Below are positions 712 to 52,910 of a DNA stretch of 64,000 nt, in pieces. The stretch is from positions 1,674,001 to 1,738,000 of the forward strand of contig OZ374558.1 of NCBI GenBank assembly GCA_977862235.1, read 5' to 3'. The position numbers and the translations under genes were made by a program. How positions within the stretch are numbered: the stretch's first letter is position 1; each line of letters begins with the position of its first letter. The DNA comes from Dudresnaya verticillata (taxonomy: Eukaryota). The notes beneath the pieces were generated by a model, which saw only the letters and a list, made by a program, of their open reading frames with translations, was not told the DNA's origin and made no database searches.

Positions 712-1386
712 TGTGATGAAGTGAGCCGTGGCGCGCATGCGGCACGCCGACGACGAGCCAACCGTAACGGGTGATGTGGCAATACGCCACGATGATGATC
801 TGGCAACGTGTAACCGTCTCGGATGTTGTGCGCATTGCTATAAGCTGGTACGCATTGCTGTACATCAGTGTAGCGCACCAACCGTAGCGGAGTATTTGTA
901 GTATTTATTCTTTATTTTTAGTGAGTATCTGTGCAGTTTGTAGAGTAGCGCGCCAGCCAATGAGAATGCTGCGCAAGTCCTTTTCGGAGATTGGGACCAG
1001 CAGGGCCGAATCCACCATGGGTCCAGACCACTAGGGTCTGGCCCGAAGGGACCGGACGGCTCGGTGCCACCCTGACTTGTATATCAGGGCGGCACCACAG
1101 CGGCTCCTAAGGTAAACGGGTAAGCAACCTTAGCCCAATCCTTTACGGTTTTCCCCGCGCCGAGCCCGTCGCGGTCTACCACCACCACCGTTACGGAGTC
1201 CGTCCCGGCACTTGTACCACCCCCTCGTCTGTTGATTCCCAATATCCGTCTCTGTTAGCCGCTCGCTGTTCTCCCGTTTCGGTGCGAACTTCTCTAACAC
1301 CCCGTGGAGGTAGTGTTGCTCTCGTCCGTTAAGGAAATTCAGGCCAGCTGTCCGTCTCGGAGTTCGTGGGTTTTCACGACACCACA
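712..1386 (+). repeat. E1 5' LTR (675 bp)
   Basis: TGTGATG...CACCACA; direct repeat of 11410-12029. Confidence 0.93.
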
Positions 1387-1391
1387 TCTTT

Positions 1392-1409
1392 TGGTCTCTG
1401 GACCTAGAA
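1392..1409 (+). promoter_or_regulatory. E1 primer-binding site (tRNA-Tyr-like)
   Basis: TGGTCTCTGGACCTAGAA just after the 5' LTR; 16/18 identical to the E2 PBS. Confidence 0.75.
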
Positions 1410-1534
1410 CACCGTCACGGTTGGAAGAAGCAGCCGTCGAAATCCGCTACGGTAGGAATTCGGCTGTACCGACAACCCGTTACGGAATATTGGATAGACA
1501 AGCAAGAACAACCGTTGTGTTCCGTTAAGGTATC

Positions 1535-4011
1535 ATGCAGAACGAAGAACACGCAGACCCTCCCGTTACGGAACCTAAAGCGGGTGACACTACCCCCGCT
1601 GCGCGCAGTCTGCGCAGTGAAGGAGGTGAAATCCGTTCCGGAGTGGAGAACCCAGAAGACACCTAAAGGGTGCTGCTGGTAAAGCTCCCCGTTCCCGTGT
1701 CGGATCAGACGCCTCGAAGAAGGCAGCTCCGCAACCCAAGCCGGAATCCCATCGGGTCCACTGGGTCCTGTCGGAGGTCCTTCCTAGAGTGTTAGAGCAT
1801 CTCCGATTGGAAGTACAACCTGGAATGTTAAAAGAGGTGGAGATATCCCTCTCGGAAACTGTTCCGTCGTTGGTTAATTCCTACCTTGTGCAGCACCTTC
1901 CTCGGATAGTGCAAGCTTTGATCCTACAGGAAAAGGTGGCCGCCGAGCTCGAGAGCCAGATTGCTCCCTGCATGGCAAGGCCTCCCGCTACGGAAGCTTT
2001 CACTGAGCAACCACCGTTACGGAATGAATTCCCGGTCGAGGGAAGAACGCAGCAGCCGCAACAACCCCCCTTTATGGGAGTGCAGCCGGGCACAGTACCC
2101 TCTGGGCCACTGCCACCGGCTCCCGTAACGGATTCTCAACATCAACACGCCCCTACGGGACCAACACACACTCAGCCACCGTTACAGTATTCTCCTGGAC
2201 ACGTAGATGTGCCTACGCCAGGGCGCTATCAGCAAGAGCGCTATACCGTTCCGGTTCGATCAGGTGGAGGCAGCGACCATCTCAGCGATGCGTCCAGCTC
2301 ACCCCATCCGAGTCGGAGGACCGGTCGAGGTCGGCATAAACGAGATGCCCGACACTCCCGCTCTGACCCTCCCCGTCGGTCGCACATGGGCGACCACACC
2401 CAGCGACGACGCCCCCAATCCTGTATGGAATCCAATGAGAGAAGCTCAGGGGATAGCCAACACCGCCGCAAGAGGAGAAACAGAAGATCACGGAAACGCG
2501 AAAAAAGGCATGACTCCTATTCCTCTACGGATTCAGACTCAGATAGTTCTTCCGTAACGGATAGAGAAAATAGGCACCGGGCCAGAAAACACGGTGCCAA
2601 ATCCGGAAAGGTGAAGGTAATCCGGCCGCTACATGGCAAGTTTGTCAAGGCGCTGGACTATCGCACCTACCGATTGGATAAGAGGAGCAAGACGTACGGC
2701 TCTAAGTTGTCACAGAACATGAGCCGTATATGGAAGAAACTCGACGTCCAGATGTCGTCCCATACATTCGATGGGACGGACCCTATTACCGTCTTGGTAT
2801 TTCTCGCTAAGTTACGTGGCGGTTGTAACATCAACGGCATCGCCGAAGGGGTTGCCGTCTGGTGCTTCCAGTTTTCCTTAAAGGCCAGGCCGAAGCCCTT
2901 CTACAGGCTAGGATTGCTGGAGGTACCATGGCGGTTGACGTAGAGCAGGCCGAGATGCTCCGCACATATTCCGATGTGGTGAACTTTTTGTTGAGAACCT
3001 ACGCTACGGATGAAGTGATTTCCGAATCCTATACGGATGTCAGCAACTTCAGGAAAACATCCGCCATGGCTGAAGAGCAGTTCTTGAACCAGCTCTGGGC
3101 CAAGGTTCTCCGTTGCGGTACAGTATTTTCCGATCGGGCATTGAAGTCACTGTTCGTTGAAGGGCTCCTACCGGGCACTCGTCAACAGATGAGAAATTAT
3201 TCAGCAACTCATTACCAGTTGGATTATCAGGCCATCACTCGCTATGCGACTGGCCTGGGTCAGTCCCATCGGGCAGCTCGACGCCAAACCGTTCCGTCTC
3301 ACGTCTTTGATGGGCGCACTAAAGCACGCCCGTCTAAGGTGTTATCGCTGGATTCCGTCTCGGATGTACACTATGATCCGCAAGCAGATCGTTCCGTTAC
3401 GGATGCTCAAGTCTTAGCTGTCGAGGGAGGCCACGGTGCCGCTACGGGAACGAGCACGGGGGTTACCTTTTCCATCCCGTACTCCTCTCCCCCGCAAAGC
3501 GTCCACCCTACTCCGCCGAGGATGCCACGCGCGCAATGGCCCCCCTATGGTGGATCTGGCTCGGCTCCTGGCCCCCAACAGCAGCCGAGTCACCGTTACG
3601 GAAATAATAACCACGATGGGCGAGGACAGCAGCAACCAGCACCTCCATTACGGGATGAGTCGGATCCTCGGGTCCGACGCCTTTACGGAAATGGTAACTG
3701 TCGCATCTGCCTTTCGCCAGAGCACGTTGTTTGGCCATGGATACATGACTCCGATCGGGTTAGGCTTATGGAAGAGCGAGAGAGCACAACTTCCAGAAGC
3801 ACTACCCTGTAGGCCGCAGGTTCGTAGTAAGCACCAGTTCGAATCCACAAGGGAATCGGGGCAAGCCGCATAAGCCCCCCCGCAACGGAATGCGCCGATA
3901 CTATCGGTGGAGGACCATGACGGAGGGGAACTCGCAGAATTGCGCGAGACCATCGAGGCGGATCCGACTGGTGCACCCTTGATTTCGGAAAACTCAAGGA
4001 GGGATGCGTAA
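1535..4011 (+). pseudogene. gag: E1 gag (frameshifted; ORF pieces 1789-2943 and 2862-3812)
   Basis: Homologous to E2 gag: YRTYRL, F(D/N)G(T/S)D..VL.FLA, V..LLRTYAT, RCG.V. Degenerate zinc knuckle CRICLSPEH. ATG at 1535 follows the PBS. Confidence 0.85.
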
Positions 4012-7000
4012 GGGCGCCGCCATCCCCGCCTCACAGCGTTCCACCTCTCGCAAGTGTGGACTCGCCCCGGGATCGGCGAGATACCGTTATGGAACTCCCA
4101 TTGGCTTATCAGACCAATGATCCTATCTGCTTTTTGCAACATCAAAATTATAAGATGCAAATTATCGTGGGACGGACAGATAGCGTGATGCTTCCTCTAA
4201 TCTCCGTCTTGGACTCTGGCGCTGGGCCCAATCTCATTAGTGCCAGGCGCCTTCCGCGCCAATGGCTCCCACTCATACGCCCAGCAACCAGCCCTACATT
4301 ACGGGATGCGTCAAATCGCGCTATACGCCCTCTTGGTCAGATCCAACTTTTCGTCCGTATCGGAGAGCTCCGTGCTCGCGTCCATTTTCTAGTGGTCGCG
4401 AACTTGGCGGCTCCCTGTATTTTGGGAACTACCTTCATCGACCGCTACGTGAAGGCAATCCTCCCTCAGTTACGGAAAGTTGTTTTTCATCATTACCCAC
4501 TGGTATCCCTTGTTGGTCAAGCCAAAATTCCGAAGACGGGTAACGCCGCAACTCTACAGCCCTCATCTTTATCCACCGCTACGGTTTCTCAGAAAATTCG
4601 TTTAGCAAGATCTACCCTTATTCCCCCTATGCCTCAAACCTCCGTAACGGTTAATACCCCACGGGTGGGTTATGCGTTCTAAAAAATCATCCTAAGCCGG
4701 CTTTTAAGCACCTTACGTTAATGGCTAAGGTATTATGGATGTTGTACCTAACAAACCGTTTCGGATCTGGGTCTCTAATTTTTCTAACAAGCCGGTACGG
4801 TTGCCCAAATATGCTGTCGTGGGCCTTGCTACTGCTGCCCCTTTCTGCTATTTTTACCGTTGACGGTATACCTCCATTTAAGGAGAGGGAGGAATTATTC
4901 AATCATTCAATTCTAACCTTACCTCCGAAAAGGCCAGCAGCATCTCCCCTCACGACAATGAAGTACGAAACCCGTAACGGAAACTACAAATACTACCGAC
5001 TGGAAGGATCAAGTCCAGATCGGTACAGAAGAAGCATCGCTCCGTAAACGGATTTTAACCCTACTCGAAGAATATAAGTCGATGTGGAGTGGCGATCTTG
5101 GCAACATTACAGCTGCCAAGCACCGCATCGAGTTAACTCCCGGAGCTAAGCCCGTATATCAAGCCCCATACCGTGCCGGACATAAGCAGTGAGATATCGA
5201 AAAGACAGAGATCGATCGCATGCCCGCTAAGGTAATTGAACCAGCCTCATCGGAGTAGACCAGCCCTGTGGTTTTCGTTCCAAAAAAGGACGGCACCATG
5301 CGGTTCTGTGTTGACTATAGAAGGGTCAATTCCGTAACGGTTAGGGACTCATATCCCTTGCCCAGGATGGATGAGTGCATAGATTCCCTTGGGGAAGCTA
5401 CTGTATTTACCACCCTGGATTTCAATAGCGGATATTGCCAAGTCGAGATTCCGGAAGAGGAAAGGGACAAAACTACCTTCACTAGCCATTTTGGCTTATA
5501 CCGTTTTCGGAGAATGCCATTCGGATTGAAAAATGCAGCGGCAACCTTCCAACGGGCAGTGGATATAATCCTTTCTACGGTTAAATGGCAATTTGCCCCC
5601 GTCTACCTAGACGATGTAATTGTCTACTCAAAAACCGTTACGGAACATTTCCACCACCTGAAGGAAGTCATTACGCTTTTACGATCCGCTGGGGTAACGT
5701 TGAAATTGTCAAAGTGTGACTTCTTCAACGCGTCTGTACAATACCTGGGGCATGTTATGAGTCCCGGAAAATTGGAAGTGGATAATAGGAATATCCAATC
5801 CGTTAAGGTCGCGAAGCCGCCGACTAACCAAACGGGATTGCGATCCTTCTTGGGAATGTGCAACGTGTATCATCGCTTTGTACCCAAATTCGCTCGGATT
5901 TCAGCACCGCTGAATAAGAATACCGGCAAGGGCTCACCATTTGAGTTTGGAATATTATCCGATACGGAATACGAAGCCTTCGAGGAACTGAAGAGACGCC
6001 TTATCTCTCCACCTATATTGGCTCTACCCCGCCACGGATATAAATATACGTTGGACACTGACGCATTTGACCATCAAGTCGGCTGTGTCCTTCTGCAGGA
6101 ACAACCGAATGGCGATCACCTCCCTATTGGATACTGGAGCCGAAGCCTGACCGATGCGGAGAAATTTTATACTACAACCGAAAAGGAATGCTTAGCCGTG
6201 GTCTAGAGTATGTTGACACTCCGACCCTACCTTTACGGTGACAAGTTTATTCTCCGAAGGATCACGATTCCCTGCGGTGGATCCTGAACCTCGCAGACTC
6301 ATCTTGCCGCCTAGCCAGGTGGAGGCTCCGCCTATCGGAATTTGAATTCGAGGTGCAATACCGTCCAGGAATTAAGCATCAACTCGCCGATGGGATGTCG
6401 CGACTCCGAACGGATGGCGGTGACAATAGACCTTTGGATGAAGAGATACCCCGCTTCGTCGCCGAAAATACCGTCGACGGATTATATTAGCATGGAGTTT
6501 ATTTAACCGATTGGGCTACATCACAAGAAACCGCTACGGAAAATAACGTAACATGCGCCGTGGCGCCCGCCAGTGGGAGTGCATCCGCCTCCCCTGACAA
6601 GCCCGACGTAATACCGTCACGGTTTACTGTAATCCAAGAATCCGACGTTAAGGATGAGACAATTACCAGGGAGGAGTTCCTTGAAGCGCAAGCCCGAGAC
6701 CCTTTCTGTCGTCTCAAAGCCGATACGGTAGGCTCACCTGGATCACAGTTTAGCTATGACCGTAACGGATTCTTGGTACGCAAGTCCCAATTGGATGGCG
6801 CTCTACAGAAGGTGGTGCCAAGCAAACTCCGTGGACGGGTATTGTATTTATCTCACTACACCCTGATGTCGGGTCACCCAGGCGGAATTAAGATGTATTA
6901 TACTCTCCGACAGGATTATTATTGGCCTCATATGGCCAAGGATGTATTTGAATCCGTTCGGACATGTCGCTCCTGCGTGAAGACGAAGGGAACCGCTTTC

Positions 7001-8325
7001 GGAATCAAAGGTTTATGAAACTTTTCCCCGCTAGTGGACCTTTGGAGTTTGTCGCTATCGACACTCTCGGGCCACTTCCGAAGACAAAACGGGGTTATGT
7101 CTACGTTCTGGTAATAACCGATCGGTTCTCTAAGCTGACGCGCTGTATTCCGTTACGGACAACAACAGCCGTTGTGGTGGCGAACGCCTTTCTGGACTTT
7201 TGGGTTTATGCGTATGGCGCACCCCAATTTGTCCTAACCGATAACGGACCGCAGTTTACTGCTACGTTCTTTGACTCGGTGTGTTCCTTACTCGGAGTCA
7301 GGCGCCTATTAACCGCTGCCTACCATCCGCTGACAAATGGGCAAGCTGAGCGATTTAATAAGACAATCGCCCAGTTTTTGCGCCATTACGTTGAGGATCA
7401 TCACTCCGGTTGGTATTTGTACCTGCAACCGTTGACGTATGCGTACAACATGCAGGTACACCGTATTACGGAAACAACGCCATTTGATTTGGTGCTGACA
7501 CGCCACCCATCGGACATGGTTGTACGAGGGGCTCCTGTCGAGCATCAAGAAACCGTTACGGAAGGGCGTATGATCCCAGTGTTACAGAAGCGGAGCACCA
7601 TGCGCCGTTTACGGTATGCGCTCCAGGCAGCGCGCATTAAGCAGACAGTAGCCCAGCAAAAATCCAAGGCACTGTTTGACCGTAAGGTGCGCTTTAGGCC
7701 CATAATCCGTAGCGGAGATCAAGTCTATGTCGACCGGCCGCCCCATAACTTGCGTCCTGCCGAACGCCGTGAGCGGGACCGATTGGAAGGTAAACCGGAT
7801 GATGTGGGTGAGGTGGCTCAGGAAATGAAGAAACTTCTTCCGCGAGCCACGGGGCCTTATGAAGTGGAATCCGCAACGGAACATGTGGTTACAATCCGCA
7901 AGGAAGGGGTATTGATCCCAGTAAGCATCGATCGCATCACGAAAGTTCTGATCGGAGTTGCGGTTCAGCCGGCGCCCTTAACAGTGCCGCCTGTCGCGCC
8001 ATCAACCGTTTACGGTGAAGTAATGCCACATCCAGAAGGTACGGCAGTAACGCCTACTCCGTCAACGGGCATTACACCCTCCGTAGCGGAACCCTTACAA
8101 GCCGATACGGAATATGTGATCGACAAGATTGTCGGTCACCGCGACGAACCTACCGGGATGACCTATAGAGTCCGCTGGTATGGTTACCCTCCGGATCAGG
8201 ACACTTTTGAGCCCGCGGAGGAGTTGCCGCAGAATTTCATCTACCGGTATTGCAAGCAAAAGAAAAAGACCTCCGGTAAGGGTAAGCCACGGCGACGTGC
8301 TAATCCAACACGTCACTCACCGTAA
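3987..8325 (+). pseudogene. pol: E1 pol: aspartic protease, RT, RNase H, integrase, chromodomain (several stops and frameshifts)
   Basis: Protease LDSGAGPNLI. RT RFCVDYR, MPFGLKNA, YLDD. RNase H TDA, EKECLAVV. Integrase H..GH..C..C, TDNGPQF, GQAERFN, GPY. Chromodomain YVIDKIVGHR...YRVRWYGY...TFEP (~8113-8260). Confidence 0.95.
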
Positions 8326-8425
8326 CGGACAGCTGGAGTGTTGGGGTGTGAGAACACACAATGTTTATCGCAAGCTAAGGTCGAGGCATAATGGAGACCG
8401 TTAAGGAGATCGTCGAACTGTAACT

Positions 8426-11271
8426 CTAAGAGTTACGGCGACGCCGCTTCGGAGCAGGGGCAACTATATCTTCCTCGTTGCTCCCCTGACCCGTTCGTAA
8501 GCCGGGTTCCCCACTGGGATCAGATTGGAATACGCGCTGCGTATTGTCTCCCAAGACGCGAATCGCATTATCCATGCGCCGACGCTGACGACGGACCACT
8601 GCGCGGAGATGAATCACCTTTTCCATCAGCCCCTCCGCTAAGGTTAGCGTTTCCTGAACGGATCATGGCAATGGGAAGCGCTGCGTACGGCAAATGCCCC
8701 GTAGCGCCTGTGACCCACTTTTGGTAGCGGCTAAATGAGCCGGAACCGTAACGGGGGGATCCTCATCTTCTTGAAACTCTACCTGCGGGGAGATCTACGG
8801 CTTATCCCTAACCCCGGCTTCGATTGAATGCTCCGTTGAGGAAACCACCAATACGGATGGTCCCGACTCGGGTGAAGGTACGTCCTTCCGCAGCGGTGGA
8901 TTCGTGTCCTTCTCTGTCGAGGCGATATATCTTTTCCGTAACGGTTCGGGACTTGACGCGGGGACCGAGGGCTTGTCACCAGTCGCCCCAACACTTGGGC
9001 GCTTTGCAGCCACTTCCGATACGGTGATCGGTGCCTCACTCACCGCTGGTGTGGGAGTGGGCGCCAACAGCGGAACACTTGGCGGGGGCGGTTCGGCGGC
9101 TGCAGGCATTTGCGTCGCAGGAGACAGTGCCGCCGGCACAGTATCCGGCGCTACTTCCGAAACGGTCTGCTCCTTTGAGGCCCCCTTCTCGGATGGTGCC
9201 GCAGGCTTGGGCACCGCCATAGTAGACGCAACCACGCCTATAGGCGTTGGGGCCTTATCCGATACGGGAGTAGTATTCTCACGATCTACATCGCGCGACG
9301 TGGGTGTAGCGACCACCGGAAGGATTGGAGCGGATTTCTTCTCGATACCCGCTGCCATTGATGCGACGGGCATGACCTCCTCCTGTTCTTCCAAGAAGGG
9401 GTCAGCTTCTTGCTGCCTCACCATAACGGAATCGCGCGGGTCGATTGTACGCGAACGCCCCGCTGCCTCCTGACAGCCCCCAATCTTCAGCCCCGTCCAA
9501 ACCATCACGGTACGCATCCCTTGGTGCTTGGTGAGGCGCATAGCCCCGATGGGCCTGCACCTCTAAGGCCAACCATTCCGGACGCGGATCTTCTCGATGA
9601 AGGAAATATGGCTCACCCACTCCGGGCCTAAGCGGGGGCACCGATAGGAAACGGTCCTCATCCCAACTATACCCCAAGAAGCCCGGAGTGCGTAGCCAAT
9701 CCTGCTCTCCGTGTACGGATAAAAGACGCTCAACCTGATGGAGAGGGTACGCCGACCCCGTCACCAAATCGGCTACGCCGACTTGGCGAATTAGGGCGAT
9801 CACCGTTACGGGAAGTTGAAAAATACGGCCACAGTATCCTCCGGGCAGGTCATCCTCATCCCGTGGGAAGCATCGCCAGTCGGCTAACTTGGTATTATAC
9901 CGTACTCCGTAATAGGCCACCTGGAGCCACGAGAAGAGCACCAGCATGGCCCATTCCGATCGGAAGATGCGCCACAGTACATCGAGCTGATCTTGATTCG
10001 GGGGGCGCTCTCCGTTCGGACGTTTGTGATTCCACTCCCGTTCGGTGAGTAGGTCCGCCGAAAAGTATGCCACGACGGAAGGCGTGGGGACAGACAACCA
10101 ACGGGTCACCTCATAACGATCCTACCATGACGGAGCTGTAAGGTACAATTCACGACGCACCAGATACGGAAGATGGAAGAACTCCTTAGTGTTTCAAGTA
10201 TGCAGGATTGGCGAGCCAACTTGCATTCCGTCACGGGAGCGAGTTCGCAAACGGTGTTCCGTCGCGGCATCGTCCTTCCACCCATCGGCATAGCGGAACC
10301 AATATACCGACTGGTCATAGGGGCGGTCAAAGCAAATGAATTGCACTCCGACCGGCGCACCCCGGAGACGGAAACCTTTGGCCAACAGGTGACTGACCTT
10401 TGCGGTATATCCTACCTCCCCATGGCAGCGATACCACAACAAATCCGAAACGGTAGAGGTCAGCGCTTGACAATAGCCATGCACCCATCGGCTTTGCCAT
10501 ACAAATTCTCTCCGATTCGGAACAACGCCAATGCGTTGATTCGCCTTAGGGCTGCGCCATGACGGCCTTGTACCTTCTTGCTTCCACGACGGTTGGATAC
10601 TTCTCGATGAAGTAGTCCACCGTCATCGGGGGCTTAATCTTCGCCCTCTCCGCATCGGTTCTAGCCGGGCGCCCCGCGCGATGATCAAAGTGGTGCCCCG
10701 GCCAATAACCACTCGGGGCAGGAACCTCTCCGTCACGGGTATGCACCACCGGCCACCAAGGCCCTGGTGCAGGTGGATTGATTTGCGGGGGCCCACGCAT
10801 CCGTCTCGGTGTACTTGATGAAGGATGTAGACTAGCCACCATCCTACGACTCGGCGTCGATACCGGTGTCGATGGTGCCCGTAACGGAATGACCGGTAGG
10901 TCTGCCAAGCTGAGCTCCTCGCCACCACGACGGAATGCATCATCACGGTCCTTGGTTGGCGCCTCTCCGTCACGGTGGGTCGCTGCACTCCCTGGTAGCG
11001 CGGTCCTTGTGGCTGCGCTCGCAGCAAACCGATTCGGATCATAGGCCGACCACCCTCGGCTCGCTGATGGAGCCGGCGAAGGTTCCGTCACGGCAACGCT
11101 CGTACGACCGCCCATTGCGGGTCGCGTCGCTGCCGCCGAGGAAGAAGCCGGCGCTTGAGTCGAAGCATCCGTAACGGTTAGCGCGCCCTGCGCCCTAGTC
11201 GTGGATGCCGCGCGGGAACGCCGTGTCGGTTGAAAGGGCGACGGTGAGCGCTTGGTTTTCTCCCCTGACAT
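8426..11271 (-). pseudogene. E1 antisense extra ORF (disrupted), unknown protein: low-complexity N-terminus, conserved globular core, Ala/Pro/Thr-rich tail, C-terminal basic NLS-like PAPKRRRR
   Basis: Collinear minus-strand ORF pieces 10546-11271 (ATG 11271), 10194-10484, 9402-10109 (same frame as 10194-10484, with two in-frame stops), 8795-9541 and 8426-8626. The core aligns by eye with the E2 antisense ORF. Confidence 0.75.
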
Positions 11272-11396
11272 GGTGGGAGAAGCGCGCAAGAAGAGGAAGG
11301 ACTGATGAGAACACTTCCGTATCGGTTGTGTGTGTTCGTGGGTGGGGAAGCGATAGCGATCCGCTACGGTGGGCGCCCGAGGACGTGGCGCCATTT

Positions 11397-11407
11397 AAGG
11401 AGGGGGG
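11397..11407 (+). promoter_or_regulatory. E1 polypurine tract
   Basis: AAGGAGGGGGG, 2 nt before the 3' LTR. Confidence 0.85.
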
Positions 11408-11409
11408 TC

Positions 11410-12029
11410 TGTGGTGAAGTGAGCAGTAGCGCGCATGCGGCACGCCGACGGCGAGCCAGCCGTAACGGGTGATGTGGCAATACACCGCGCTGATGATCTG
11501 GCAACGTGTAACCGTCTCGGATGTTGTGCGCATTGCTGTACGCTGGTCCGCATTGCTGTACAGCAGTGTAGCGCACCAACCGTAGCGGAGTATTTGTAGT
11601 ATTTATTCTTTATTTTTAGTGAGTATCTGTGCAGTGTGTAGAGTAGCGCGCCAGCCAATGAGAATGCTGCGCAAGTCCTTTTCGGAGATTGGGACCAGCA
11701 GGGCCGATTCCACCATGGGTCCAGACCACTAGGGTCTGGCCCCCACGGACCGGACGGCTCGGTGCCACCCTGACTTGTATATCAGGGCGGCACCATAGCG
11801 GCTCCTAAGGCAAACGGGTAAGCAACCTTAGCCCAATCCTGTACGGTTTTCCCCGCACCGAGCCCGTTGCGGTCTACCACCACCACCGTTACGGAGTCCG
11901 TCCCGGCACTTGTACCACCCCCTCGTCTGTTGCTTCCTACCACCCCGTGGAGGTAGTGTTGCTCTCGTCCGTTAAGGAAAGTCAGGCCAGCTGTCCGTCT
12001 CGGAGTTCGTGGGTTTTCACTACACCACT
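11410..12029 (+). repeat. E1 3' LTR (620 bp; ~55 bp shorter than the 5' LTR near 11935)
   Basis: TGTGGTG...CACCACT; direct repeat of 712-1386 with scattered substitutions and one internal deletion. Confidence 0.93.
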
Positions 12030-12511: not shown

Positions 12512-13421
12512 TGTGGTGCAAAACGTCTGACACGATAGACCGCCGAGCAGTTCGTGGCTCGGTGGGTAGCTGCGCCCTTGGCGAGAGGTGGTCCCGCCGT
12601 GGGCGACTTGGTGGTAGAGCAAAGGAACACGCCTTGGGCGGACTGTAGACGACCGAGGCGGAAGGTGTGAAGGAAGGGAAAAGGAAACAGAAAGGGAACA
12701 CGTCAAGGACGATGGTAGACGTGGAAGCACGGGAGGTAGACGCTTAGCCGTGGGCAGCGGTAGGATACGCGCGTGCGGAACGGGGAAGTCTGGACCAAGG
12801 CCGGCTTGCCCGGGCGTTTACTGTTACGTCTGGGACGGCTTACCTAAGTATAGTACGGCGGTGCGGCGGCGGCGGTGCGTGTGCGTAGCGCGGGAACTCG
12901 GGACACGTGTCGTCCCGAGGCGCGTCTGACAGACCACCGGTTGCATGCAGCCGCGCGTCTGACAGGTTGCCGTGCAACCCCCTGTATAGGTGCTTACACA
13001 CACACGTGGACGCGTGGGCCTTACAGCCGTGCGTGCGCGCGCACTGTAGAGCGTGCGCATTAGATCTAATCCGATACTTGTCTGATCCCGATCCCATCCG
13101 GATCGGGCCAGCAATGCGAATACCCGCAGCATTACAGACGCGTATCTTACAGCTTAGGCGATCCGGATAACCAATCTGGATACCGGATCCGGATCCCATC
13201 TGGATCCGTATTACAGTGCCCCGGGGCGCCACGTCGGGCCATCACCGTACAGTGCCCGCGTGGCGCGCGGCGCGCAGTGTGCGCGCGCGCCCCAGTGAGC
13301 CGGCGATGACGTGTTCGCGTGCCAACGGCGGTGGTGAGCGCCGGTGGCGGGTTCTCCGTCGGTCGACGTATTTGGTCCGCCCACTTTCAGCGAAAAAGAG
13401 CTCACCTCCCCTTGCACCACA
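12512..13421 (-). repeat. E2 3' LTR (910 bp)
   Basis: TGTGGTGCA...TGCACCACA termini; repeat of 24870-25779 and 51328-52236. Confidence 0.95.
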
Positions 13422-13424
13422 CGA

Positions 13425-13433
13425 CCCCCCTCC
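13425..13433 (-). promoter_or_regulatory. E2 polypurine tract
   Basis: Minus strand GGAGGGGGG, 3 nt before the 3' LTR. Confidence 0.8.
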
Positions 13434-13857
13434 AAAACGCGAACACGACCCGACCCTCAACCTGCTGCCGTGCGCTCTCCCGTCGCGTGCCTGCCAACTT
13501 CCGCGCCTTGCGAGCGAGTCCCCGCGCCTTCGCGTATTGTGTCGGTGCGCCCGCGTTTACGCTGCCCCGACATCACCGCCCGTGGCGCATAACGTTGTCG
13601 TTGACGTCTATCGTATATCCCTCGCCTGGGGCGTTGCAACTTAATCGTCATCGGCGTCGTTTGCTTTTGGCATCGCCATTGGCGCAGCAGCTGAACGTCG
13701 TTGACGTGGGTTTCGTTTCCTCGCCTAAGGCCTTACAACAGTAATCGCCTTCGACGCACGCTTCTTGAAGCTTTCGCCAGTGGCGCAGAACACGAGTCGT
13801 CTTTGACGTTTGTACAAGCATCACCTTTGGCGTTAACATATTCTCGTCGTTGACATC

Positions 13858-16158
13858 ATGCCGATGTTCAATGGCATGCAGGTGGCGGCGCCCTCGGCTG
13901 CGCCGGTGTACGCTTCGCCGATCGACTTCGTCGGAAAGAATCCTCGCGATCACGCGCATTTCTTCGCGCGGGCCCCCTGGTTTGAGCAGGAGGCCCTGCG
14001 CGAGGAAGAATTGGTTGCCCATCACGCTACTAGCGGTTTCTTGCCGGGGGCCTGCCCCTCGGCGTCGTCTGGACGTTGGAATGGGAGTTACGCTGCGCCG
14101 TTCCTGCGGAATGGCTTTGGGTGCGAGCGGGACAGTCGCGTGCGGACGTCCACGCGCAGTTCGTCTCAGACGTGTATCGTCGCTTCACGCGGTATCCGGG
14201 GTCGACGTTAACGCCGCCCTTGTTCAATTATGATGCGGGACAGTATCGCACAGCCGGCGAAGCCGAATATGGTGCTCGTCTTGGGACGTTATCGCTCAAA
14301 CACGTTAGTGTGTCGATTGAGCCTCGCGTGTTGGGAGAGGCCTACCTGTTAGGCGTACGCTTGAAAGCGGATTTTCGTTACTTGCATCGTACGGGTACGT
14401 TCTTTTGGGAGCGTTGTATCCGGTGGGAGTGCGAGACGCGTCGCCGAAAGGGCGTATTCGTACCTTACCAGGACATGCAGGTCGATCGCATTGAGCGTAG
14501 TAAGTTACCGTTTTGTTTCGTGAAGGTACTGCCTGTATGGCGAGAGTTTGAGATATGCGAGGGTTTCTCCGTAGAGCTTCCTCCGTGTGTCACGTATCGA
14601 GCTGATGACCGACCCCTATTCAAGGTATTGGATCGTGTTTTACACGGAGTGGGTCGCCAATGTGGTGTATGCGTGGTTATGGGAGGTGTATGACACCTTC
14701 CGTATGTACCACTTGCCTCCGCGTGTGGTGGCTCAGCTTGGCAGCCTCGACTTGGTAGAAATATTTGGCGGGTCCCGGAACGCCGAGGAGTTCTGGAACC
14801 TGCGCGCTGTGGCGGATGAGATCGACTGGAACGACCCGGCAATGGTGCCGTATGCGAACAACCGCCGTAAGGCGAACCGTCCGCGCTTCGCGATGAGTCG
14901 GACTCACTCCGTCTGTGGCGATTGGGTCCATTATAACCCGTGGACTAAGCGTCGTACGACGAAGAACATTGCGGAGCGCCATCGCAAAACGGACCGCTTC
15001 ACCCCGGGTAATCACCCGCGTGGTTTGCGTAAGAGCTGCGACTTTGTCGGTGATTTTCCTCCGCATCTGAGCGCCTTAATGGCCGAGGAGGATGCGTTTA
15101 ACGCCGATGGCGGACCGGAGAACCCGTCTGGGACGGACATTGCTGCGCCTATGGCGGTTGAGTCGACTGCCGAGCCTGCGCCCGCGTCTTCGGCTTTGCC
15201 CGGAGGCGCTGTCGGTGGCGGTGGAGTGCCAGCTGGCCTGCCAGCTGTTGCTCCTCTGGACCTTGCGGCTCCCGTCGCTGACGATGATGGTGATGCCGTT
15301 ATGGCGACGCCAATATTGGAGTCGGCTCCGCCGACCGTGACGCCTCAAGGCAAAGCATCAAACATCGCAGACGGTTCTGGGGGTCCAGCTTCGGTGCCGG
15401 TTCGGACCGAAGAACAGCGCCGCACCGTGCTTGCGTTATTGCAAGCGGCAGGCGTCGCTACTAGCGGTCTGAGCGGCTCACCCACTGAGTGGATGAGCCA
15501 ATCTTTGTCGGCTGGGGTCCCACCTCAGGGTGGGCCCACGCCGAAGTCGACTAGTGTCATAGGTTCTGCGTCGAAGGACGGTGTGGCAGAGAAGCCTTCG
15601 TCGCCTAAGGCGAATGGTCCGGCGTCTAAAGACGTGAGTATGACTGTACCGCCTGTAGCGAGCGAAGCGAATGCCGATATAGCGTCGTTGACGGTTCCAA
15701 AGGGGCCAGGGGCTCCTGCGTCATTGACTGGTGTTGGTTGGTTGGTTAACAGCGCCGAAGGCGAGTGAAGAAGCGACGCCAATCAAGGCGGTTTCTGAAC
15801 TGACGCCAAAGGCGGTCGACGAGTCGTTGATTACGCTTAAAGCGGATGGGGCTATGCCCGCGCCTAAGGCGAACGATGGCTTGAGCTCTGCACCCGTGGC
15901 GGTTGTTATTGCTTCATCGCCTTTGGCGGATATTGTCGCGACGACGTCGAAGGCGATTGATGAGTCGCCCATCTCGCCTGCGGCGCCTGTTATAGTCACT
16001 CCGGCGGTTGCGGTGGCAAGGCCTTTGCGGTCCGCCCGGCTCCTGCCGTGAGTGTACCGTCGAGGACGGAGGACGACCTCTATGAAGAGGCGTTGCGTGA
16101 GTCCGCCGAAGGCGCCGTGGCTGTACCACCCGATTCGTCTGCGACGAAAGAGTCTTGA
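13858..16158 (+). pseudogene. E2 antisense extra ORF (frameshifted), homologous to the E1 antisense ORF
   Basis: Collinear ORF pieces 13858-14211, 14076-14693, 14587-15768 and 15731-16051. A globular Trp/Tyr-rich core is followed by an Ala/Pro/Ser-rich tail. Confidence 0.78.
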
Positions 16159-17462
16159 TGTCGTTTGAGCAAAGGATAGCGGACGCGAGGTGCGTATTGT
16201 GTTGCCCTTCGGCTCCCTTGCGGGACCGATGAGCGGGGTATTCCCCTTCGTCTTTGACGATTAATGTAGCTGTAGTGGTCGATTGCTAGGGCGTGGGGTT
16301 GTCCCCATTTGTTTTTAGCCCAGTAAACTTCGGCCATTGTCAGCGTCTTTGTGTGTCACGTTTCGCGTTGGCCCTTAGGGTGTGACTTGTGATCCACTTT
16401 CGACTTTGCGTCGTGTTCTTGGTTGCCCACTACAGTAACGTTGGCGTTTGGTGCCATTGGCCTTAGCCGTGCGTTGGCACTTGGCTCTGTTTGCCCAGTA
16501 GGGTCCGCTGTAGTAGCGTTGTTCTTTGTGTTTCACGCGCGGCGTTGGCGTATTTCCGCTTACTTAGCGTTTTGTTTTTGTAGTTCATGTGTCGCACTGC
16601 GACTTGGGCGTGGTTTGTTGGGTCACTGCACCTTGGGCGTGGTTTTTCGGCGTCCTCGACGACGGTCGCGAAGGCGGTGAGGTAGGTTTGGCGCCTCGGC
16701 GTTGCCGCCCCTTTCGTCTTCGACGTTTCTCGTTGTGGGTAGGGTAGAGTTGTCGGTCGCGCTCGCGCAACTGCGCGGCGGCCGCAGGCAGCGGCGGAGT
16801 CGTTGGCGATTTGTTGGCGCGTCGTGCACGGAACCCGCAGCACCTGCGTCTTCGACCACCTTCCCCCCCCTTCGGGGGTGGGTTTGTCGGTGCGCCCCTT
16901 CTCGGAGAGTTACGTCGGAGACGTTCGATGGGTCTGGCGCGCGAGACCGTGGGCGGCAGGGTGGCGGTCCCAGGTACTTGGCCGTAGGACGAGGCACGTC
17001 TCGACGTCGGAGACGGTTGTTGTGCGCTGCCACTTTGCGCCTGTCGTCGCTGGTGCTCGTAGCACCTGCTCAGCCACTTGGCATAATTGCGTTCGTCGTG
17101 CGTTGACGGCGGGGTGGTGCGCGCTGCCGTGTTTGGAAATTAAAATTGGACCCATGTCTGCCTCCTATTACCCGAGGGGCGCCGGTGGCGGATCTTGATT
17201 TGCAATCTGGATCACTGTCAACAGCGCACCCATCCAGAGGTTCCGTATGGGGGCTGCTGCGAGGTGGCGTGCGCGAGGCTGTCTATGACGCAACGACTTG
17301 CGTCCGCGTTCGTCCATGGCGTGCACACGTGGTTGGCGCTGTCGCTCTGGCGACCGCGTCCACAGGCTATGGGTTGAGCTTCCGCGCCTTTGGTGATCGT
17401 AGGTCGAGCACGCGGTCTCGATCGTCCGTCCATTCGCTTCCAGCGGTATTTCCGGATTAGGG

Positions 17463-20400
17463 TTAGCCGCGCTGCGCGTCGTCGACGTTTGGCGGCAGCT
17501 GCGTACGTTTTCGACGGTGGTATCGTGTGACGTGGGAGCGCGGCAAACTGGAGACTGGCTCCCAGGTGTTCGCTGAAGCGGGGTATCCAAACCACTTGAC
17601 GCGGTAGAGGATCTCATCACCATCCGCCTATGCGTGCGACTCTATGCGTTCAATCACGTATTATTTTCCGCTCACAGCGTTCGGCTTGGACATGGGCCTG
17701 TCCAGCGCCTTTGGCGGTTTGTCTCGTTGCGTGATGGGCGTCTGTTCCAGCTCGGCGAAGCGTACTCGACGAGTTGATCGCCGGAGGCGTTGGCCCTGGG
17801 CCTGGGACGCTCGATCAGCGGTCAGTGGATTGTTGCGTCTTGAGACGAGTTCATCGCTTGCAGCGCCTTGCTTCGTGCTTGCACGGTTAACGTCTTCGAT
17901 ATCGGATGCGCTTTCAGCGGAGTCATTGTTCTCATTCGGCGGTGCCGTAGCGACGTGTTCCAAACTGGTGCGAACCCCTGGGGTACTGTCGTCGTTGGAG
18001 ACGGATTGTGAAGCGCGGTCGTTGGGATCGGCGGCGAAGGGCGAAAGCTCTGCCAACCCACGGCTGCGTGACGCGGTGATCGTACGCTCTTGCGGATCTG
18101 CCGCAGTATGCGAAGTGTCTGCGTCCTCTTCCGGGTCCGCTGGTGGCGTGCTTGGGGTAGTCGTCCCTTCGTCGTGTGACGTGGGGGCGACTGCTCCCTG
18201 CTCCTCAGGCGGGCCTGGTGGTACGACGATTGGAGGGGCCGCCTGACCGGTGGGGTCGGCGCCCAGACCACGCGGTCTCGGGACAAACGTTCCCGCTCAT
18301 CACATCCCTTGTCGACGGTTACTGTTTCGTTATCAACGTGAGTTACCCGGTATGGTCCGTCCGCCACTGGCGCCAGCTTATACTTACGCTCTGCGCGATC
18401 CGTGCTCCCGCCTCGGGCGAAGTATTCCTTACGTACGAATACGAAGTCGCCTACGGCGATTGTTTCCTTCGATTTCCTTAAGCGGGTATCGAAGTTTCGT
18501 TTGTAACGTGCTTGAGTTTTCTCTAACGACGCTTTAGCGGTTCCCATCAGTGCGGCCAGCCAGGTTCGCCACTTGGTGTAGTATTGCCCCGCGGTGGGTA
18601 CGCTTTCGAGCGACGGTTCCGCTTCGAGCGACAATGGTCGTGGTGGCTTCGACAGCACCAATTCAAACGGAGCGAGATGCGTGGACGAATGCAACTTTGT
18701 GTTGTATGCGAACGTCAAGGCATCCGTGAACAGGTCCCAGTCTCTCGGATGATCCGCAACGTAGTGACGCCGCGAGGCCAGGATAGTTCGATTGAATCGT
18801 TCTACCTGGCCATTGTATTGCGGATGGTACGTCGTGGTGAAGAGATTCTCCACTCTCAAAAGACGGCAGATATCCTGAAACAGCTTAGCCACGAACTGTG
18901 GTCCGTTATCGGACAACAGTTTCTTGGGGGGGCCGTACAAGAAGACCCAATGTCGTACAAATGCCTTAGCGATTTCCAATGCCGTAATACTACGCAGTAG
19001 GACCGTCCGGACCAGCTTCGAGAAGCGGTCCACAATGACGAGTAGGAACTTGTTTCCTCGCTTCGTGCGTATGAGTTCGCCCAGGATGTCGATCGATACG
19101 AACTCGAGAGGCTCGGTTGCCGGGAACAACTTCAATTGCTTGGTGTTCTTTCGCAGCAATACGCGATTCTTAGCGCAAGTTACGCAGTTGCGGACGGTTG
19201 CATAGCAGTCCACTGGCATCGATGGCCAATAGTATTCGCGTCGAAGCGTATGATACAACTTACGCCCCTGGGTGCCCTGCCAACTTGGCGTGGTGCCGGA
19301 GGTGGAGTAAGCGAGCGCGTAACGCGTAGGGTACGACCACTTGCGGACGGACTTCCACTGTTCGGACCAACAGGCCCTGTTCATCCGTTGCGAACGGTAA
19401 TATGATTCCGTCATCCAGACGTTTCTTGATATCGTTACAGTACTTGTCATCGCCTTGGGCGTGTACCAACTCCTCATGCGTCACTTGACGAAGGAATACC
19501 TCATCCGCCGGTGGCGTGTTGTTGATCAACACTTGGTCGAACTCTTCGAACTCTCGTTCGGCGAAGTCGACCTCGCCTTCGGCGTCTGAAAGATCGTCCT
19601 GTGACGTTTGATGGCCGTCTTCGACGTAGCTTCCGTGATAGCACGGTATATCATCGTCAATGGGCTCGACGGTTTCTCCCTTCGTCTGTAGACGCGAAAG
19701 GGCATCTGCCTGGGTATTCAGGTACCCCTTTTTGTACTTCACGACAAAGTCGAACTCGAGAAGGCGAAGGCGCCACCGCATTAACCGTCCAGAGGGGTCG
19801 CTGATTTCCATCAGCCACCTCAACCACGAATGGTCCGTATGGACTGTGAACGACTCCATCTGGAGGTAAGGTCGCAGCGTCATGACGGACCATACTACTG
19901 CGAGGCACTCCTTTTCGGAGACCGAGTAGTTACGCTCTGGAGCGGTGATCGAGCGGGACCAGAAGCCGAGGGGCTTACGTTCCCCGTCGGGCTGCGTCTG
20001 AAAGAGAGCGCAGCCGACCTGATACTCGCTTGCGTCACAATCGACAGAATAGGGGAGACCCTGCTGTGGTAGCGCCAGTATAGGCGGATGAGTCACGGCC
20101 TCGACGAGCGTGCTGAACGCTTTGGCTTGTGTCTCATCAAACGGTTGTAACCGGAAGTCCTGTTCCTTCCTCAGCAACTTGTTGAGGGGGGCAGCGACAT
20201 GCGCGTATCGCGAGACGAACCGTCTGTAGACGTTACAAAGACCGAGGAAACTCCGTAGCTCCTTCTGATCCCGTGGATGCTTGGCTTCGCGTAGCGCGGC
20301 AGTGACAGTTCGGTCAACTTCTAACCGTCCTGGACGTATGACGTGTCCTACGCAGTTGACGGTCGGGGTGAAGAAATCACACTTGGTCAACTTCGGAGTC

Positions 20401-22187
20401 ACCCCGGCGCGGTGCAATGTCGAAAGGATCTCTTCAACATGACGGAAGTGACTGTCGATGTCGCTGGAGAAGATTATTACGTCATCGAGGTAGACGAGGC
20501 ACGAACGCCACTTGTAACCAGCGAGCAGTATGTCCAACGTTCGTTGAAACGTAGCGGGTGCGTTCGTGAGACCGAATGGCATACGCTTATAGCGGAACAG
20601 TCCGGCGTGGCACGTGAACGCAGTCTTATCGCGGTCTCGCGGATTGATCGGCACTTGCCAGTACCCACTGTTACAGTCTAGGGTGGTGAAAACGTTTGCT
20701 TCCCCTAGACTGTCGATGCATTCGTCGATACGCGGCAGCGGGTACGTGTCCCGTATGGTTACTGCGTTTAAACGACGGTAGTCCACGCAAAAGCGGAGGG
20801 TCCCGTCCTTCTTGGGGGCGAAGACCACTGGTGACGCCCACGGCGATTGTGCGGATTGGATAACCCCTTGACGCAGCATGCGTTCCACTTCCGCTTGAGC
20901 GAGTTGTCTTTGCTTCGGCCCCGCTCGGTAGGGCGGGGACGATATTGGTCTAGAGCCGGGAAGCAAGTCGATGTAGTGCTCCGTGGTTGAGATTTCTCCC
21001 AACGAACCGTCCCACATAGACGAATACTTGCGCAACATCTCCTCAAGCCGGCCTTGATGCTCGGCGGGGAGATGTCCCAGGTCCAAATCGTCTACTGACG
21101 GAGGTTTGGCAGTGGTTGCCTCGATAGACTTCGTGAAAGTATCCGGCTGTGCCGCAGTGTTATCATTCGTTTGAAAACGGAAATCTTGGTTTGTCTTCTC
21201 TTCCTCGGCTTGTTCCTCGGTGAGGCCCAAAACATCGGCTAGACTTACGTGACTGGGGAACACTGCTGTCGGATGTGGTAACGCCGTCGCGACGACTTGG
21301 GCCTTGGCCAGCGCCTGCGGGCGGGGAGAGAAGTTGGCAACCAGAATGCGAAACGCTTTTAGCGGCTCCACTTGAGCAATACCGTTCGTAACGGCCAGAA
21401 CTTGTTTGTCGTACAGCTTTCCGAACGGTTGAATCGTGATGATGCCGGCGCGCTCGGTGGTCACCGATACCCATTGCTGCGCCTTAGGCGGGATGATCGC
21501 GCGCTCGGCGACTCGGATCTTGGGTAACGTCCTCCCTTCGGCCTTGCCGTATTCCTGTTCCGTTGGTAACGGAGGGTACGACGGGGGTCGGCGCAGCGGG
21601 CGGCGCGTTATAGGGACGCGAGTCCCGTCATCCAATTCAACCTCGCGACTTCGCGGATATATTGCTTCGACGAAGCGGTCGCAAAAGTCGCAGCCGAGTA
21701 TAACCGGCGCAGCGAGTCGTTCGCAAACGATCAGTTCCAACTTGACGACTCTCCGTCCTAGACGAACGACCAGGTCGATGGTGCCTCTTGTCTGGATCGC
21801 CTTATTGTTTGCGTCGGCTATGACGGGGAGGCTCTTTGCCACGATGCGCGATTGCGCTTCTAGCGGAATGTCGTCAATGCGAATGAATTTCGGACCAGCC
21901 CCCGTGTCGAGAACAGTGAGTTTACGTGCCAAGGTACTAACGGTTGCGCCCAAATCGGCGTACACCTTATAGTTCCTCTTGGCCATTACGAACAACTGCC
22001 CCCGCGTTTGGGGGGGCTGGTACCTTCGCCATGGGTGTTTTAATGACGTCTGCGACGACTCTATCCGCCCGTTGGCGTCTTTGGTAACTAACTTCGGGCC
22101 CTCCTTCCGTGTCAGCACCTGAGGCCTAGGCCTCTCGTCGTGGTGCGACACCCCAGTGTCAGGAGTTGGTGCCCGAGTTAGTTTTTC
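17463..22187 (-). pseudogene. pol: E2 pol: protease, RT, RNase H (open 19260-22151), integrase (frameshift ~19260), chromodomain (17463-17660, with stops)
   Basis: LDTGAGP; RFCVDYRRLN, MPFGLTNAP, YLDD; DCDAS, EKECLAVV; SDNGPQF, GQVERFN, GPY. Chromodomain YVIERIESHA*ADGDEILYRVKWFGYPASANTWEP translated by hand. Confidence 0.95.
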
Positions 22188-24742: not shown

Positions 24743-24849
24743 GATACAATCGTAGAGTTGCTTGAACGTCGTGGACGATTAGCGACAAACGTCTGAAGAC
24801 GGAGGGTCGGACGTCGCACGACGGAGTAACTCGTTGAAACGTAGCACAA

Positions 24850-24867
24850 TTCTAGGTCGGGAGACCA
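24850..24867 (-). promoter_or_regulatory. E2 primer-binding site (tRNA-Tyr-like)
   Basis: Minus strand TGGTCTCCCGACCTAGAA, 2 nt from the 5' LTR. The complement reads TT-CTAGG-TCGGGAG-A-CCA, the shape of a tRNA 3' end. Confidence 0.82.
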
Positions 24868-24869
24868 GA

Positions 24870-25779
24870 TGTGGTGCAAAACGTCTGAGACGATAGACCG
24901 CCGAGCAGTTCGGGGCTCGGTGGGTAGCTGCGCCCTTGGCGAGAGGTGGTCCCGCCGTGGGCGACTTGGTGGTAGAGCAAAGGAACACGCCTTGGGCGGA
25001 CTGTAGACGCCCGAGGCGGAAGGTGTGAAGGAAGGGAAAAGGAAACAGAAAGGGAACACGTCAAGGACGATGGTAGACGTGGAAGCACGGGAGGTAGACG
25101 CTTTGCCGTAGGCAGCGGTAGGATACGCGCGTGCGGAACGGGGAGGTCTGGACCAAGGCCGGCTTGCCCGGGCGTTTACTGTTACGTCTGGGACGGCTTA
25201 CCTAAGTATAGTACGGCGGTGCGGCGGCGGCGGTGCGTGTGCGTAGTGCGGGAACTCGGGACACGTGTCGTCCCGAGGCGCGTCTGACAGATCACCGGTT
25301 GCATGCAGCCGCGCGCCTGACAGGTTGCCGTGCAACCCCCTGTATAGGTGCTTACACACACACGTGGACGCGTGGGCCTTTCAGCCGTGCGTGCGCGCGC
25401 ACTGTAGAGCGTGCGCCTTGGATCTAATCCGATACTTGTCTGATCCCGATCCCATCCGGATCGGGCCAGCAATGCGAATACCCGCAGCCTTACAGGCGCG
25501 TATCTTACAGCTTAGGCGATCCGGATAACCAATCTGGATACCGGATCCGGATCCCATCTGGATCCGTATTACAGTGCCCCGGGGCGCCACGTCGGGCTAT
25601 CACCGTACATTGCCCGTGTGGCGCGCGGCGCGCAATGTGCGCGCGCGCCCCAGTGAGCCGTCGATGACGTGTTCGCGCGCCAACGGCGGTGGTGAGCGCC
25701 GGTGGCGGGTTCTCCGTCGGTCGACGTATTTGGTCGACCCGCTTTCAGCGAAAAAGGGCTCGCCTCCCCTTGCACCACA
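24870..25779 (-). repeat. E2 5' LTR (910 bp)
   Basis: Direct repeat of 12512-13421 with TG...CA termini. Confidence 0.95.
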
Positions 25780-51240: not shown

Positions 51241-52910
51241 TTACTCCTTTGTGCCTGGCTTTTTGCTACCGTTAGTAGCATCCTTAGCCAGACACTTAGC
51301 AGTTTCGATGATATATTTGGCAGAAAGTGTGGTGCAAGGGGAGGTGAGCCCTTTTTCGCTGAAAGCGGGCGGACCAAATACGTCGACCGACGGAGAACCC
51401 GCCACCGGCGCTCACCACCGCCGTTGGCACGCGAACACGTCATCGACGGCTCACTGGGGCGCGCGCGCACACTACGCGACGCGCGCCACGCGGGCACTGT
51501 ACGGTGATGGCCCGACGTGGCGCCCCGGGACACTGTAATACGGATCCAGATGGGATCCGGATCCGGTATCCAGATTGGCTATCCGGATCGCCTAAGCTGT
51601 AAGATTCGCGCCTGTAAGGCTGCGGGTATTCGCATTGCTGGCCCGATCCGGATGGGATCGGGATCGGACAAGTATCGGATTAGATCTAATGCGCACGCTC
51701 TACAGTGCGCGCGCACGCACGGCTAAGGCCCACGCGTCCACGTGTGTGTGTAAGCACCCATACAGGGGTTTGCACGGCAACTTGTCACGCGCGCGGCTGC
51801 ATGCAATCGGTGATCTGTCAGACGCGCCTCGGGACGACACGTGTCCCGAGTTCCCGCGCTACGCACACGCACCGCCGCCGCCGCACCGCCGTACTATACT
51901 TAGGTAAGCCGTCCCAGACGTAACAGTAAACGCCCGGGCAAGCCGGCCTTGGTCCAGACTTCCCCGTTCCGCACGCGCGTATCTTACCGCTGCCTACGGC
52001 TAAGCGTCTACCTCCCGTGCTTCCACGTCTACCATCGTCCTTGACGTGTTCCCCTTTCTGTTCCCTTTTCCCTTCCTTCACACCTTCCGCCTCGGGCGTC
52101 TACAGTCCGCCCAAGGCGTGTTCCTTTTCTCTACCACCAAGTCGCGCACGGCGGGACCACCTCTCGCCAAGGGCGCAGCTACCCACCGAGCCCCGAACGG
52201 CTCGGCGGTCTATCGTCTTAGACGTTTTGCACCACAGAACGCTCTTCATATACATCTGAATAGGCGTCCGAGGGCATCTGATGGCGCTTGGCCTCAACAC
52301 GAGTCTCGAAGAGCTCCGCAATTTGGTTGGCCTAGCTCTGTCCTTTGCTGAGAACAGTCTGAAAGTGTGCAGTTCGCATCGCCAGAACCTCTTTGGCACC
52401 ATCGAGACCTTCTACGATGAGGCCCAGCAAGCGAGACTGCTTCTCTGGATCCGAGTCCGCTTTGATGAGTTCGAGCGCAGCCTTGCACTGCTCCAGCCAA
52501 CAACCCGCTGAATGGATGTACTCGAGTTCCTTAGCGTTGCGCCGGTCCGTTCGGAAGGTCTCCAAGTACAGTGTCGTTTCGGGCTTGAAATATCCGTCCT
52601 CATTCGGTAGAACGAGGCTAGAACGCGGCCACAATTCCTTGCGGCCAACCATACCGGCAGCCAGCTGATGATTAACAACATCAACATAGTCACAAGATGA
52701 CGGGGGCGAGACAGAGACGGAGGTGGCTGTTTCGCGTACATTTTTTCGGTCATTGAGGTCTGAGCGGTTCACCTGTCCAACGGGACGGAAATCATTTGTT
52801 CGAAAGTATCTTGAGAACGAAGGAAAGAACTTAGGGGAGACCGAGGGGTTGTCTAAGCTGGACTGTAGTGCTTATATCCCCTCCAGAACCTCTAAATTTG
52901 GTAACACCAT
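51241..52910 (-). pseudogene. DIRS-type ORF1 (gag-like), interrupted by a solo LTR and stops
   Basis: ATG 52910 (MVLPNLEV...). Removing the LTR and one TSD copy restores the frame ...YSDVYEELSAKYIIETAKCL...KE* ending at 51241, directly upstream of pol. Confidence 0.65.
51328..52236 (+). mobile_element. Solo LTR of the E2 family (909 bp)
   Basis: Inverted copy of the E2 LTRs, no PBS or PPT adjacent; TSD GAAAG (51323-51327) / GAACG (52237-52241). Confidence 0.93.

Follow-up and report, generated by a model that had tools for sequence, protein, structure and literature searches.

The DNA analysed here, a stretch of 64,000 nucleotides of contig OZ374558.1 of Dudresnaya verticillata (assembly GCA_977862235.1, positions 1,674,001 to 1,738,000; "the window" in the following), contains near its beginning a Ty3/gypsy retrotransposon bounded by long terminal repeats (LTRs), designated E1, that is saturated over its length with the short palindrome CCGT-N-ACGG. 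E1 is flanked by a target duplication of 5 bp with one mismatch and exhibits the domain order gag, then protease, reverse transcriptase (RT), RNase H and integrase, the last with a chromodomain at its C-terminus (Pfam PF00385, E 1.2e-9). The 3' LTR differs from the 5' LTR by 26 substitutions in 619 aligned bases and by a deletion of around 55 nt. The parts of E1, including an open reading frame (ORF) on the opposite strand, are the following:

712..12029, plus strand: E1, LTR retrotransposon of the Ty3/gypsy group, integrase bearing a chromodomain; the copy is degenerate (stops, frameshifts)
712..1385, plus strand: 5' LTR with 8 CCG-N3-CGG dyads, 2 of them exact palindromes
762-12003: 80 CCG-N3-CGG dyads including 30 exact CCGT-H-ACGG (exact ones 762..11894), consensus W-CCG-T-H-A-CGG-W
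1630..3812, plus strand: broken gag region spread over two frames that overlap; the gag of the clade loci compared below is homologous to it
3921..8325, plus strand: pol, in pieces; protease by a weak Pfam match
5259-6203, plus strand: RT-RNase H, part of pol
6491-8325, plus strand: integrase with C-terminal chromodomain, part of pol
8426..11271, minus strand: antisense accessory ORF, broken, in three frames
11410..12029, plus strand: 3' LTR with 7 dyads, 2 of them exact

The palindrome of E1

The first-pass annotation had read 30 exact copies of CCGT-N-ACGG by eye, and an exact search likewise returns 30, each at the coordinate given there:

762, 1188, 1412, 1477, 1563, 2014, 2123, 2552, 3394, 3593, 4642, 4972, 5332, 5635, 6614: exact copies, first half
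6760, 7150, 7553, 8320, 8746, 8936, 9803, 10228, 10730, 10879, 10967, 11085, 11169, 11460, 11886: exact copies, second half

Two pairs, 762/11460 and 1188/11886, are duplicates in the two LTRs, such that 28 copies are independent. Of the 30, 4 are located in the LTRs, 8 in the 5' region together with gag, and 9 each in pol and in the antisense ORF; 20 are situated within reading frames. The middle position, read at first as any base, is A in 13 copies, T in 11 and C in 6 on the sense strand and G in none, so that it is better written as H.

Markov backgrounds of E1 contain on average 0.41 (order 1), 0.27 (order 2) or 1.75 (order 3) copies and never more than 5 (100 runs, orders up to 3), as against the 30 observed. 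The earlier statement that amino-acid usage does not explain the copies holds equally: the 8,238 coding bases carry 20 of them, as against 1.55 when the codons are shuffled synonymously (500 shuffles, none above 7). Codon periodicity as a source of the dyads was rejected on the basis of synonymous shuffles. Concerning the confinement to E1, which was judged on the window and on 190 other gypsy loci (1.26 Mb), these loci hold 25 exact motifs altogether, with at most 3 per locus, and the exact motif is absent from the around 37 kb of the window outside E1 and E2, the neighbouring gypsy element. The annotation had also seen no exact copy in E2; this part stands (0 copies between 12,000 and 64,000), but the saturation of E2 with a dyad of its own had been missed, as had the antisense ORF.

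Near-matches, equally reported before, are present, and it is mostly at the two inner positions that they deviate. If only the outer bases are required, 80 dyads of the form CCG-N3-CGG are found in E1, compared with 0 to 17 at the other spacings between 0 and 11. Gag, pol, the 3' region and the two LTRs all contain them, the LTRs at 11 to 12 per kb as against 5 in pol, and their spacings (mean 142 bp) are compatible with random placement (Kolmogorov-Smirnov p 0.26). The inner T and the inner A vary independently (Fisher p 0.33) and the variants are nearly strand-symmetric. Non-complementary inner bases are common: 42 of the 80 dyads have kept the T or the A in just one of their halves; C-N-G is found once and G-N-C never. 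The site thus has the character of a position weight matrix, like that of a protein-binding matrix. A decay of CpG was considered as origin of the near-matches and rejected (CCAT-type 7 vs CTGT-type 1, with the outer bases nearly invariant). Sequences flanking the dyads pair below chance (5/30). The site can be read as an ordinary dimer site and equally as an invariant stem of 3 bp with a T-H-A loop.

At 20 of the 28 coding places where the E1 proteins permit the exact site, it is used. The proteins themselves are also affected: Pol of E1 offers 6.8 motif-permitting places per 1000 amino acids (aa), compared with 1.7 +/- 1.3 in 107 homologues, and the most permissive homologues, P0084 (7.0) and P0083 (5.1), belong to the clade of E1. 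Since the motif is permitted most in E1 and these two relatives, the site has shaped the protein, and judged from these protein sequences it is probably common to some sister families.

E1 is placed within a nest of older elements. Positions 1-600 of the window contain an LTR akin to that of E1 (around 72% over 200 bp), with, at 92, one near-match to the motif of E1. A single eukaryote is named in the list of 120 Pol homologues, Agarophyton chilense (P0067), which groups with E2 in the RT tree and points to a red alga as the likely host; viral contigs contributed only five relatives, all distant, and nothing in the window matched Rfam.

Dyads in E2 and across the gypsy clade

The second gypsy element, E2, is accompanied by the following features:

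12512..25779, minus strand: E2, second gypsy element, RT identity to E1 57-58%, with CG-xy-N3-x'y'-CG dyads
13858..16050 (end approximate), plus strand: broken antisense accessory ORF of E2; its protein belongs to the family of E1's
51327..52236, plus strand: E2-family solo LTR with 11 E2-type dyads

The dyad of E2 is a different one and its arms covary. CGCC-N3-GGCG is found 40 times, CGTC-N3-GACG 32 times and CGCT-N3-AGCG 14 times, and CGYY-N3-RRCG sites amount to 105. In the matrix of inner bases the diagonal is filled (CC 40, TC 32, CT 14, GC 10, CG 9), whereas the off-diagonal cells mostly hold 0 to 4. Coding sequence alone contains 16, 12 and 8 of the three main forms, as against 0.8 to 1.5 in shuffles. 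No target duplication is found at the ends of E2 or of the solo LTR, which suggests recombination between copies. A remnant at 26472-26755, around 71% similar to the LTR of E2, represents a related family, and broken RT-like sequence (49402-51578, weak RVT_1 match) adjoins the solo LTR.

For the wider comparison, a clade-specific pattern supplied 120 loci, out of an estimated 700 or so, with flanks for 80 of them, and genome bins supplied another 65. Each family was represented by a single locus with 4 kb or more of sequence around RT, and a z of at least 5 for perfect 4-bp arms at one span was taken as an excess. Such an excess is exhibited by 13 of the 25 clade families and by none of the 43 gypsy loci that are more distant; if long repeats are admitted as well, in a less strict test, the counts are 16 of 25 and 6 of 43, respectively. 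E1 itself reaches 4.3 when the sequence of the arms is left free. Only inverted repeats are in excess, and direct, mirror and complement repeats are not raised.

The families differ in the form of their dyads, and this geometry tracks the RT tree. In L026, L133, L136 and L137, 4-bp arms of any sequence are around threefold in excess at a fixed span (z 9-10 against codon shuffles), with a total span of 12 in L026 and L136/L137 and of 12 to 14 in L133. In L150, L138 and L060 the excess consists of arms of 7 to 15 bp. In L150 (6867 bp) there are 57 inverted repeats without mismatch, whose arms measure 7-15 bp and whose loops measure 4-11 (mostly 6-8), many of them in coding sequence; perfect 9-bp arms occur 25 times where 0.2 are expected. 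L138 (5145 bp) contains perfect inverted repeats of 7-10 bp with oriented 6-nt loops, NYCGWW, centred on CpG. Families with and without dyads are found in one assembly (a metagenome, which may contain several hosts), and since the geometry differs between families within it, the dyads are no host-wide bias.

Two intact lineages, L136 and L137 (73% nucleotide identity), share 28 of 84 span-12 dyads, compared with 6 of 66 at control spans; most dyads therefore turn over while their density is kept. Slower change of arms than of flanks among family copies (0.063 vs 0.101) was considered as a sign of selection and discarded, neutral decay from a dyad-rich ancestor predicting around 0.067.

A GTDB bin labelled as the bacterium Algimonas contains many eukaryotic gypsy contigs (L126, L127, L133-L138, L140, L150), and several other bins do likewise. 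In the remainder of the window, a unit of 8.1 kb is repeated at 97-99% identity (32168-47736 and 57410-64000) and shows no dyad excess; it comprises an ORF of 447 aa with no Pfam match, a 16-bp tandem repeat and a G-rich tract. A further ORF of 707 aa with no Pfam match is located at 55101-57224.

The antisense protein and the origin of the dyads

The antisense ORF is situated between pol and the 3' LTR in the same orientation in both elements of the window and in many clade loci; intact forms encode 837 aa in L133 and 994 aa in L137. The protein of E1 has a low-complexity N-terminus, a conserved core (around 10550-9405), a tail rich in Pro, Ala and Thr and a basic end resembling a nuclear localisation signal; such an end is found in 9 of 44 long members of the family, compared with 3.2 in shuffles. 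Although the proteins of E1 and E2 align only weakly (E 0.001), they form one family with the ORFs of the clade loci. This conserved, clade-wide family comprises 935 clusters at 50% identity in a profile search, and the E1 core matches 25 of the 150 clusters listed (best E 8e-16). A direct search with the same core found none among proteins of 385-1225 aa, and none of the 10 clusters looked up carries a name. In 22 + 76 members no informative Pfam match was obtained, only weak coiled-coil hits. Atlas gave no match, and among solved structures no relative was detected by sequence (one UHRF1 row, E 0.46, is not significant). Among the naturally intact members, P0157 comes closest to the protein of E1 and P0152 to that of E2. 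The core of P0152, modelled with confidence from 118 sequences, is mostly helical (predicted local distance difference test 92, predicted template modelling score 0.90), and the family has around 14 conserved basic columns. Fold comparison of two models yielded no match (best Z 3.4 and 2.4). Blanks of all these kinds do not by themselves show a new fold.

We favour, with a probability of roughly 0.4, the reading that the dyads are selected self-marks of each family, which would be read on the DNA of the element by its own antisense protein and would serve to keep copies active. The palindrome would have spread along the whole of E1 as a family mark and would be retained by selection; the protein encoded on the opposite strand would bind the dyads and so recognise the copies of its own family; and recognised copies would be kept transcriptionally active, as in the anti-silencing by VANC proteins. 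We infer selection, rather than mutation, as the source of the dyads, the antisense protein as their reader and DNA as their substrate, and the likeness to VANC suggests anti-silencing as the purpose.

Several observations weigh against this reading. The middle base of the E1 site is C in 18 and G in 4 cases on the sense strand (p 0.004), which corresponds to an oriented loop, and the loops of E2 are oriented as well (38% A vs 20% T on the sense strand). Coding sequence of E2 permits the mixed sites CGCC-N3-GACG and CGTC-N3-GGCG at 20 places and uses none of these, compared with 36 of 57 for the symmetric ones; recognition by a simple dimer on double-stranded DNA would not call for such an avoidance. 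Hairpins read in single strands are suggested instead by the covariation and by the orientation of the loops. One subclade (L048, L056, L061, L077/L047, L079/L070 and L085) showed neither a dyad nor another strong motif, and the antisense ORF is present in the dyad-free L047, L061, L070, L077 and L085. The modelled core is net neutral, with 40 basic and 41 acidic residues. CpG is not depleted in E1 (observed/expected 1.07), such that a pressure from methylation-based silencing is not evident. Finally, the comparison covers one copy of the E1 family, and its sister families as proteins only.

In sister families the complementarity of the arms outweighs their sequence, so a reader would have to sense a small hairpin. 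A more far-reaching form of the self-mark reading is possible, though on the doubtful side: the clade of algal gypsy elements might possess a family code of perfect DNA hairpins with fixed arm and loop size, read by a fast-evolving antisense protein with a fold unmatched in the PDB. The code would extend from the sequence-fixed site of E1 through the sequence-free arms of sister families to the 10-bp arms of L150.

A related but somewhat unlikely explanation is that the dyads act as mini-hairpins in single strands, i.e., in genomic RNA or minus-strand complementary DNA, where Gag, RT/integrase or the antisense protein would read them for family-specific packaging, priming or protection; the stem CCG:CGG with its T-H-A loop would then be the most sequence-fixed end of the series. 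The covarying arms of E2, the excess of 4-bp arms irrespective of sequence at one span in L026, L133, L136 and L137, the enrichment of inverted repeats alone and the orientation of loops (A-rich ones in E2, NYCGWW in L138) agree with this, and dispersed packaging signals exist in RNA viruses. However, G-U pairs are not preferred on either strand (in L150, long repeats with a single mismatch show G.T 2, A.C 6 and others 16), which argues against RNA, and stems end on wobble pairs at the chance rate only. For E1 in particular, a stem of 3 bp is too short to fold unaided, its flanks pair below chance, and the near strand symmetry of the variants does not fit.

A mutational footprint is improbable. 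Here the RT of the family, or a repair step, would fold back and copy one arm to the other, with protein selection as a filter; arms that match perfectly in the Watson-Crick sense, end abruptly and lack wobble pairs, the arms of 7-15 bp within coding sequence of L150 and the family-specific geometry that a family-specific enzyme would leave are in line with it. Copying of arms cannot, however, yield the asymmetric variants that make up 42 of the 80 E1 dyads; left and right arms show no asymmetry in amino-acid deviation (14 elements), and multi-base changes in one arm or compensatory changes are not in excess among family copies. Least probable is a hijacked host transcription factor: the matrix-like site is densest in the LTRs, TAACGG in its half is a MYB-type core and CCG-Nx-CGG resembles zinc-cluster sites, but TAACGG is not enriched outside the dyads (1 vs 3.3 expected), the remaining window DNA has no exact site, and a separate dyad per family and the saturation of coding sequence are left unexplained.

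The self-mark reading touches the question of how a family of retrotransposons distinguishes copies or RNAs of its own from those of the dozens of relatives in one genome, and also that of the role of antisense accessory ORFs in gypsy elements, a matter raised in PMC11963269. The sequence of every family itself names a candidate target, such that protein-target pairs can be compared directly and cross-wise. If the antisense protein reads the dyads, it would constitute a new DNA-binding fold, specific for sequences or for hairpins, of which hundreds of variants differing in specificity exist in nature; a hairpin code, if real, would be a structure-based self-recognition for which no equivalent has been described in retroelements. 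Should the protein not be the reader, the clade still exhibits an undescribed force, strong enough to change RT and integrase in their codons and amino acids alike.

Comparison with known systems

The literature search found no paper on dyad saturation of retrotransposons, subscription papers being largely outside its scope and supplements or Repbase possibly bearing on the matter. The HIP1 word of cyanobacteria and DNA uptake sequences are short words enriched in coding sequence in all frames, where they bend the protein. They are genome-wide and bacterial, whereas the motif of E1 ends at the ends of the element and changes by family. RNA viruses possess many short degenerate stem-loops dispersed through the genome, coding sequence included; in such packaging signals G-U pairs are expected, which the dyads of the E1 clade do not favour.

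With Retand (Tat) gypsy elements, E1 shares a long region that extends from pol to the 3' LTR and in which an antisense ORF is conserved, in Retand that of TRP28, which possibly binds DNA (PMC11963269). Retand elements are non-chromoviruses of flowering plants with family-specific tandem arrays, and the available part of that paper describes no element-wide dyad; E1, in contrast, has a chromodomain, and its antisense ORF lacks TRP28 (PF04195). The PMD-C proteins MAIL2 and MAIL1, which are related to transposons, pair with DNA motifs, palindromic ones in MAIL2, and oppose silencing (bioRxiv 2024.09.27.615353). As far as that text is available, this system consists of host genes and promoter motifs, whereas the antisense protein shows no Pfam PMD match. 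Modules of protein and motif are also treated for PMD, VANC and TnpA (PMC13547354; bioRxiv 10.64898/2026.08.24.746577), with no dyad-saturated retrotransposon in the available parts of these sources.

The organization of E1 and its sister families is most similar to that of the VANDAL transposons of Arabidopsis, in which VANC proteins bind family-specific motifs accumulated in their own elements (Hosaka et al. 2017, PMC5735166, available in part). In both cases a family accumulates a short motif of its own, related families differ in it, and an accessory protein is encoded, which is the proven reader there and a candidate reader in the E1 clade. There are also differences: VANDAL is a Mu-like DNA transposon and E1 an LTR retrotransposon, and the VANDAL motifs (YAGTATTAY, AGTTGTMC) are, in the available text, not palindromic, non-coding and spread as tandem repeats, whereas the dyads of E1 stand one by one all through coding sequence, and complementary arms free in sequence are what its sister families employ. 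Unlike VANC, the antisense protein matches neither DUF1985 nor PMD in Pfam (22 + 76 members), and the VANC/PMD fold is not among the structural matches listed, the presence of the VANC structure 9LNK in the libraries being unchecked. E1 would accordingly work like the VANDAL/VANC system without being a member of it, as the most sequence-fixed case of a clade-wide code of family dyads with the antisense protein as a plausible candidate for its reader; if so, it would represent a second, independent route to self-recognition of the VANC kind.

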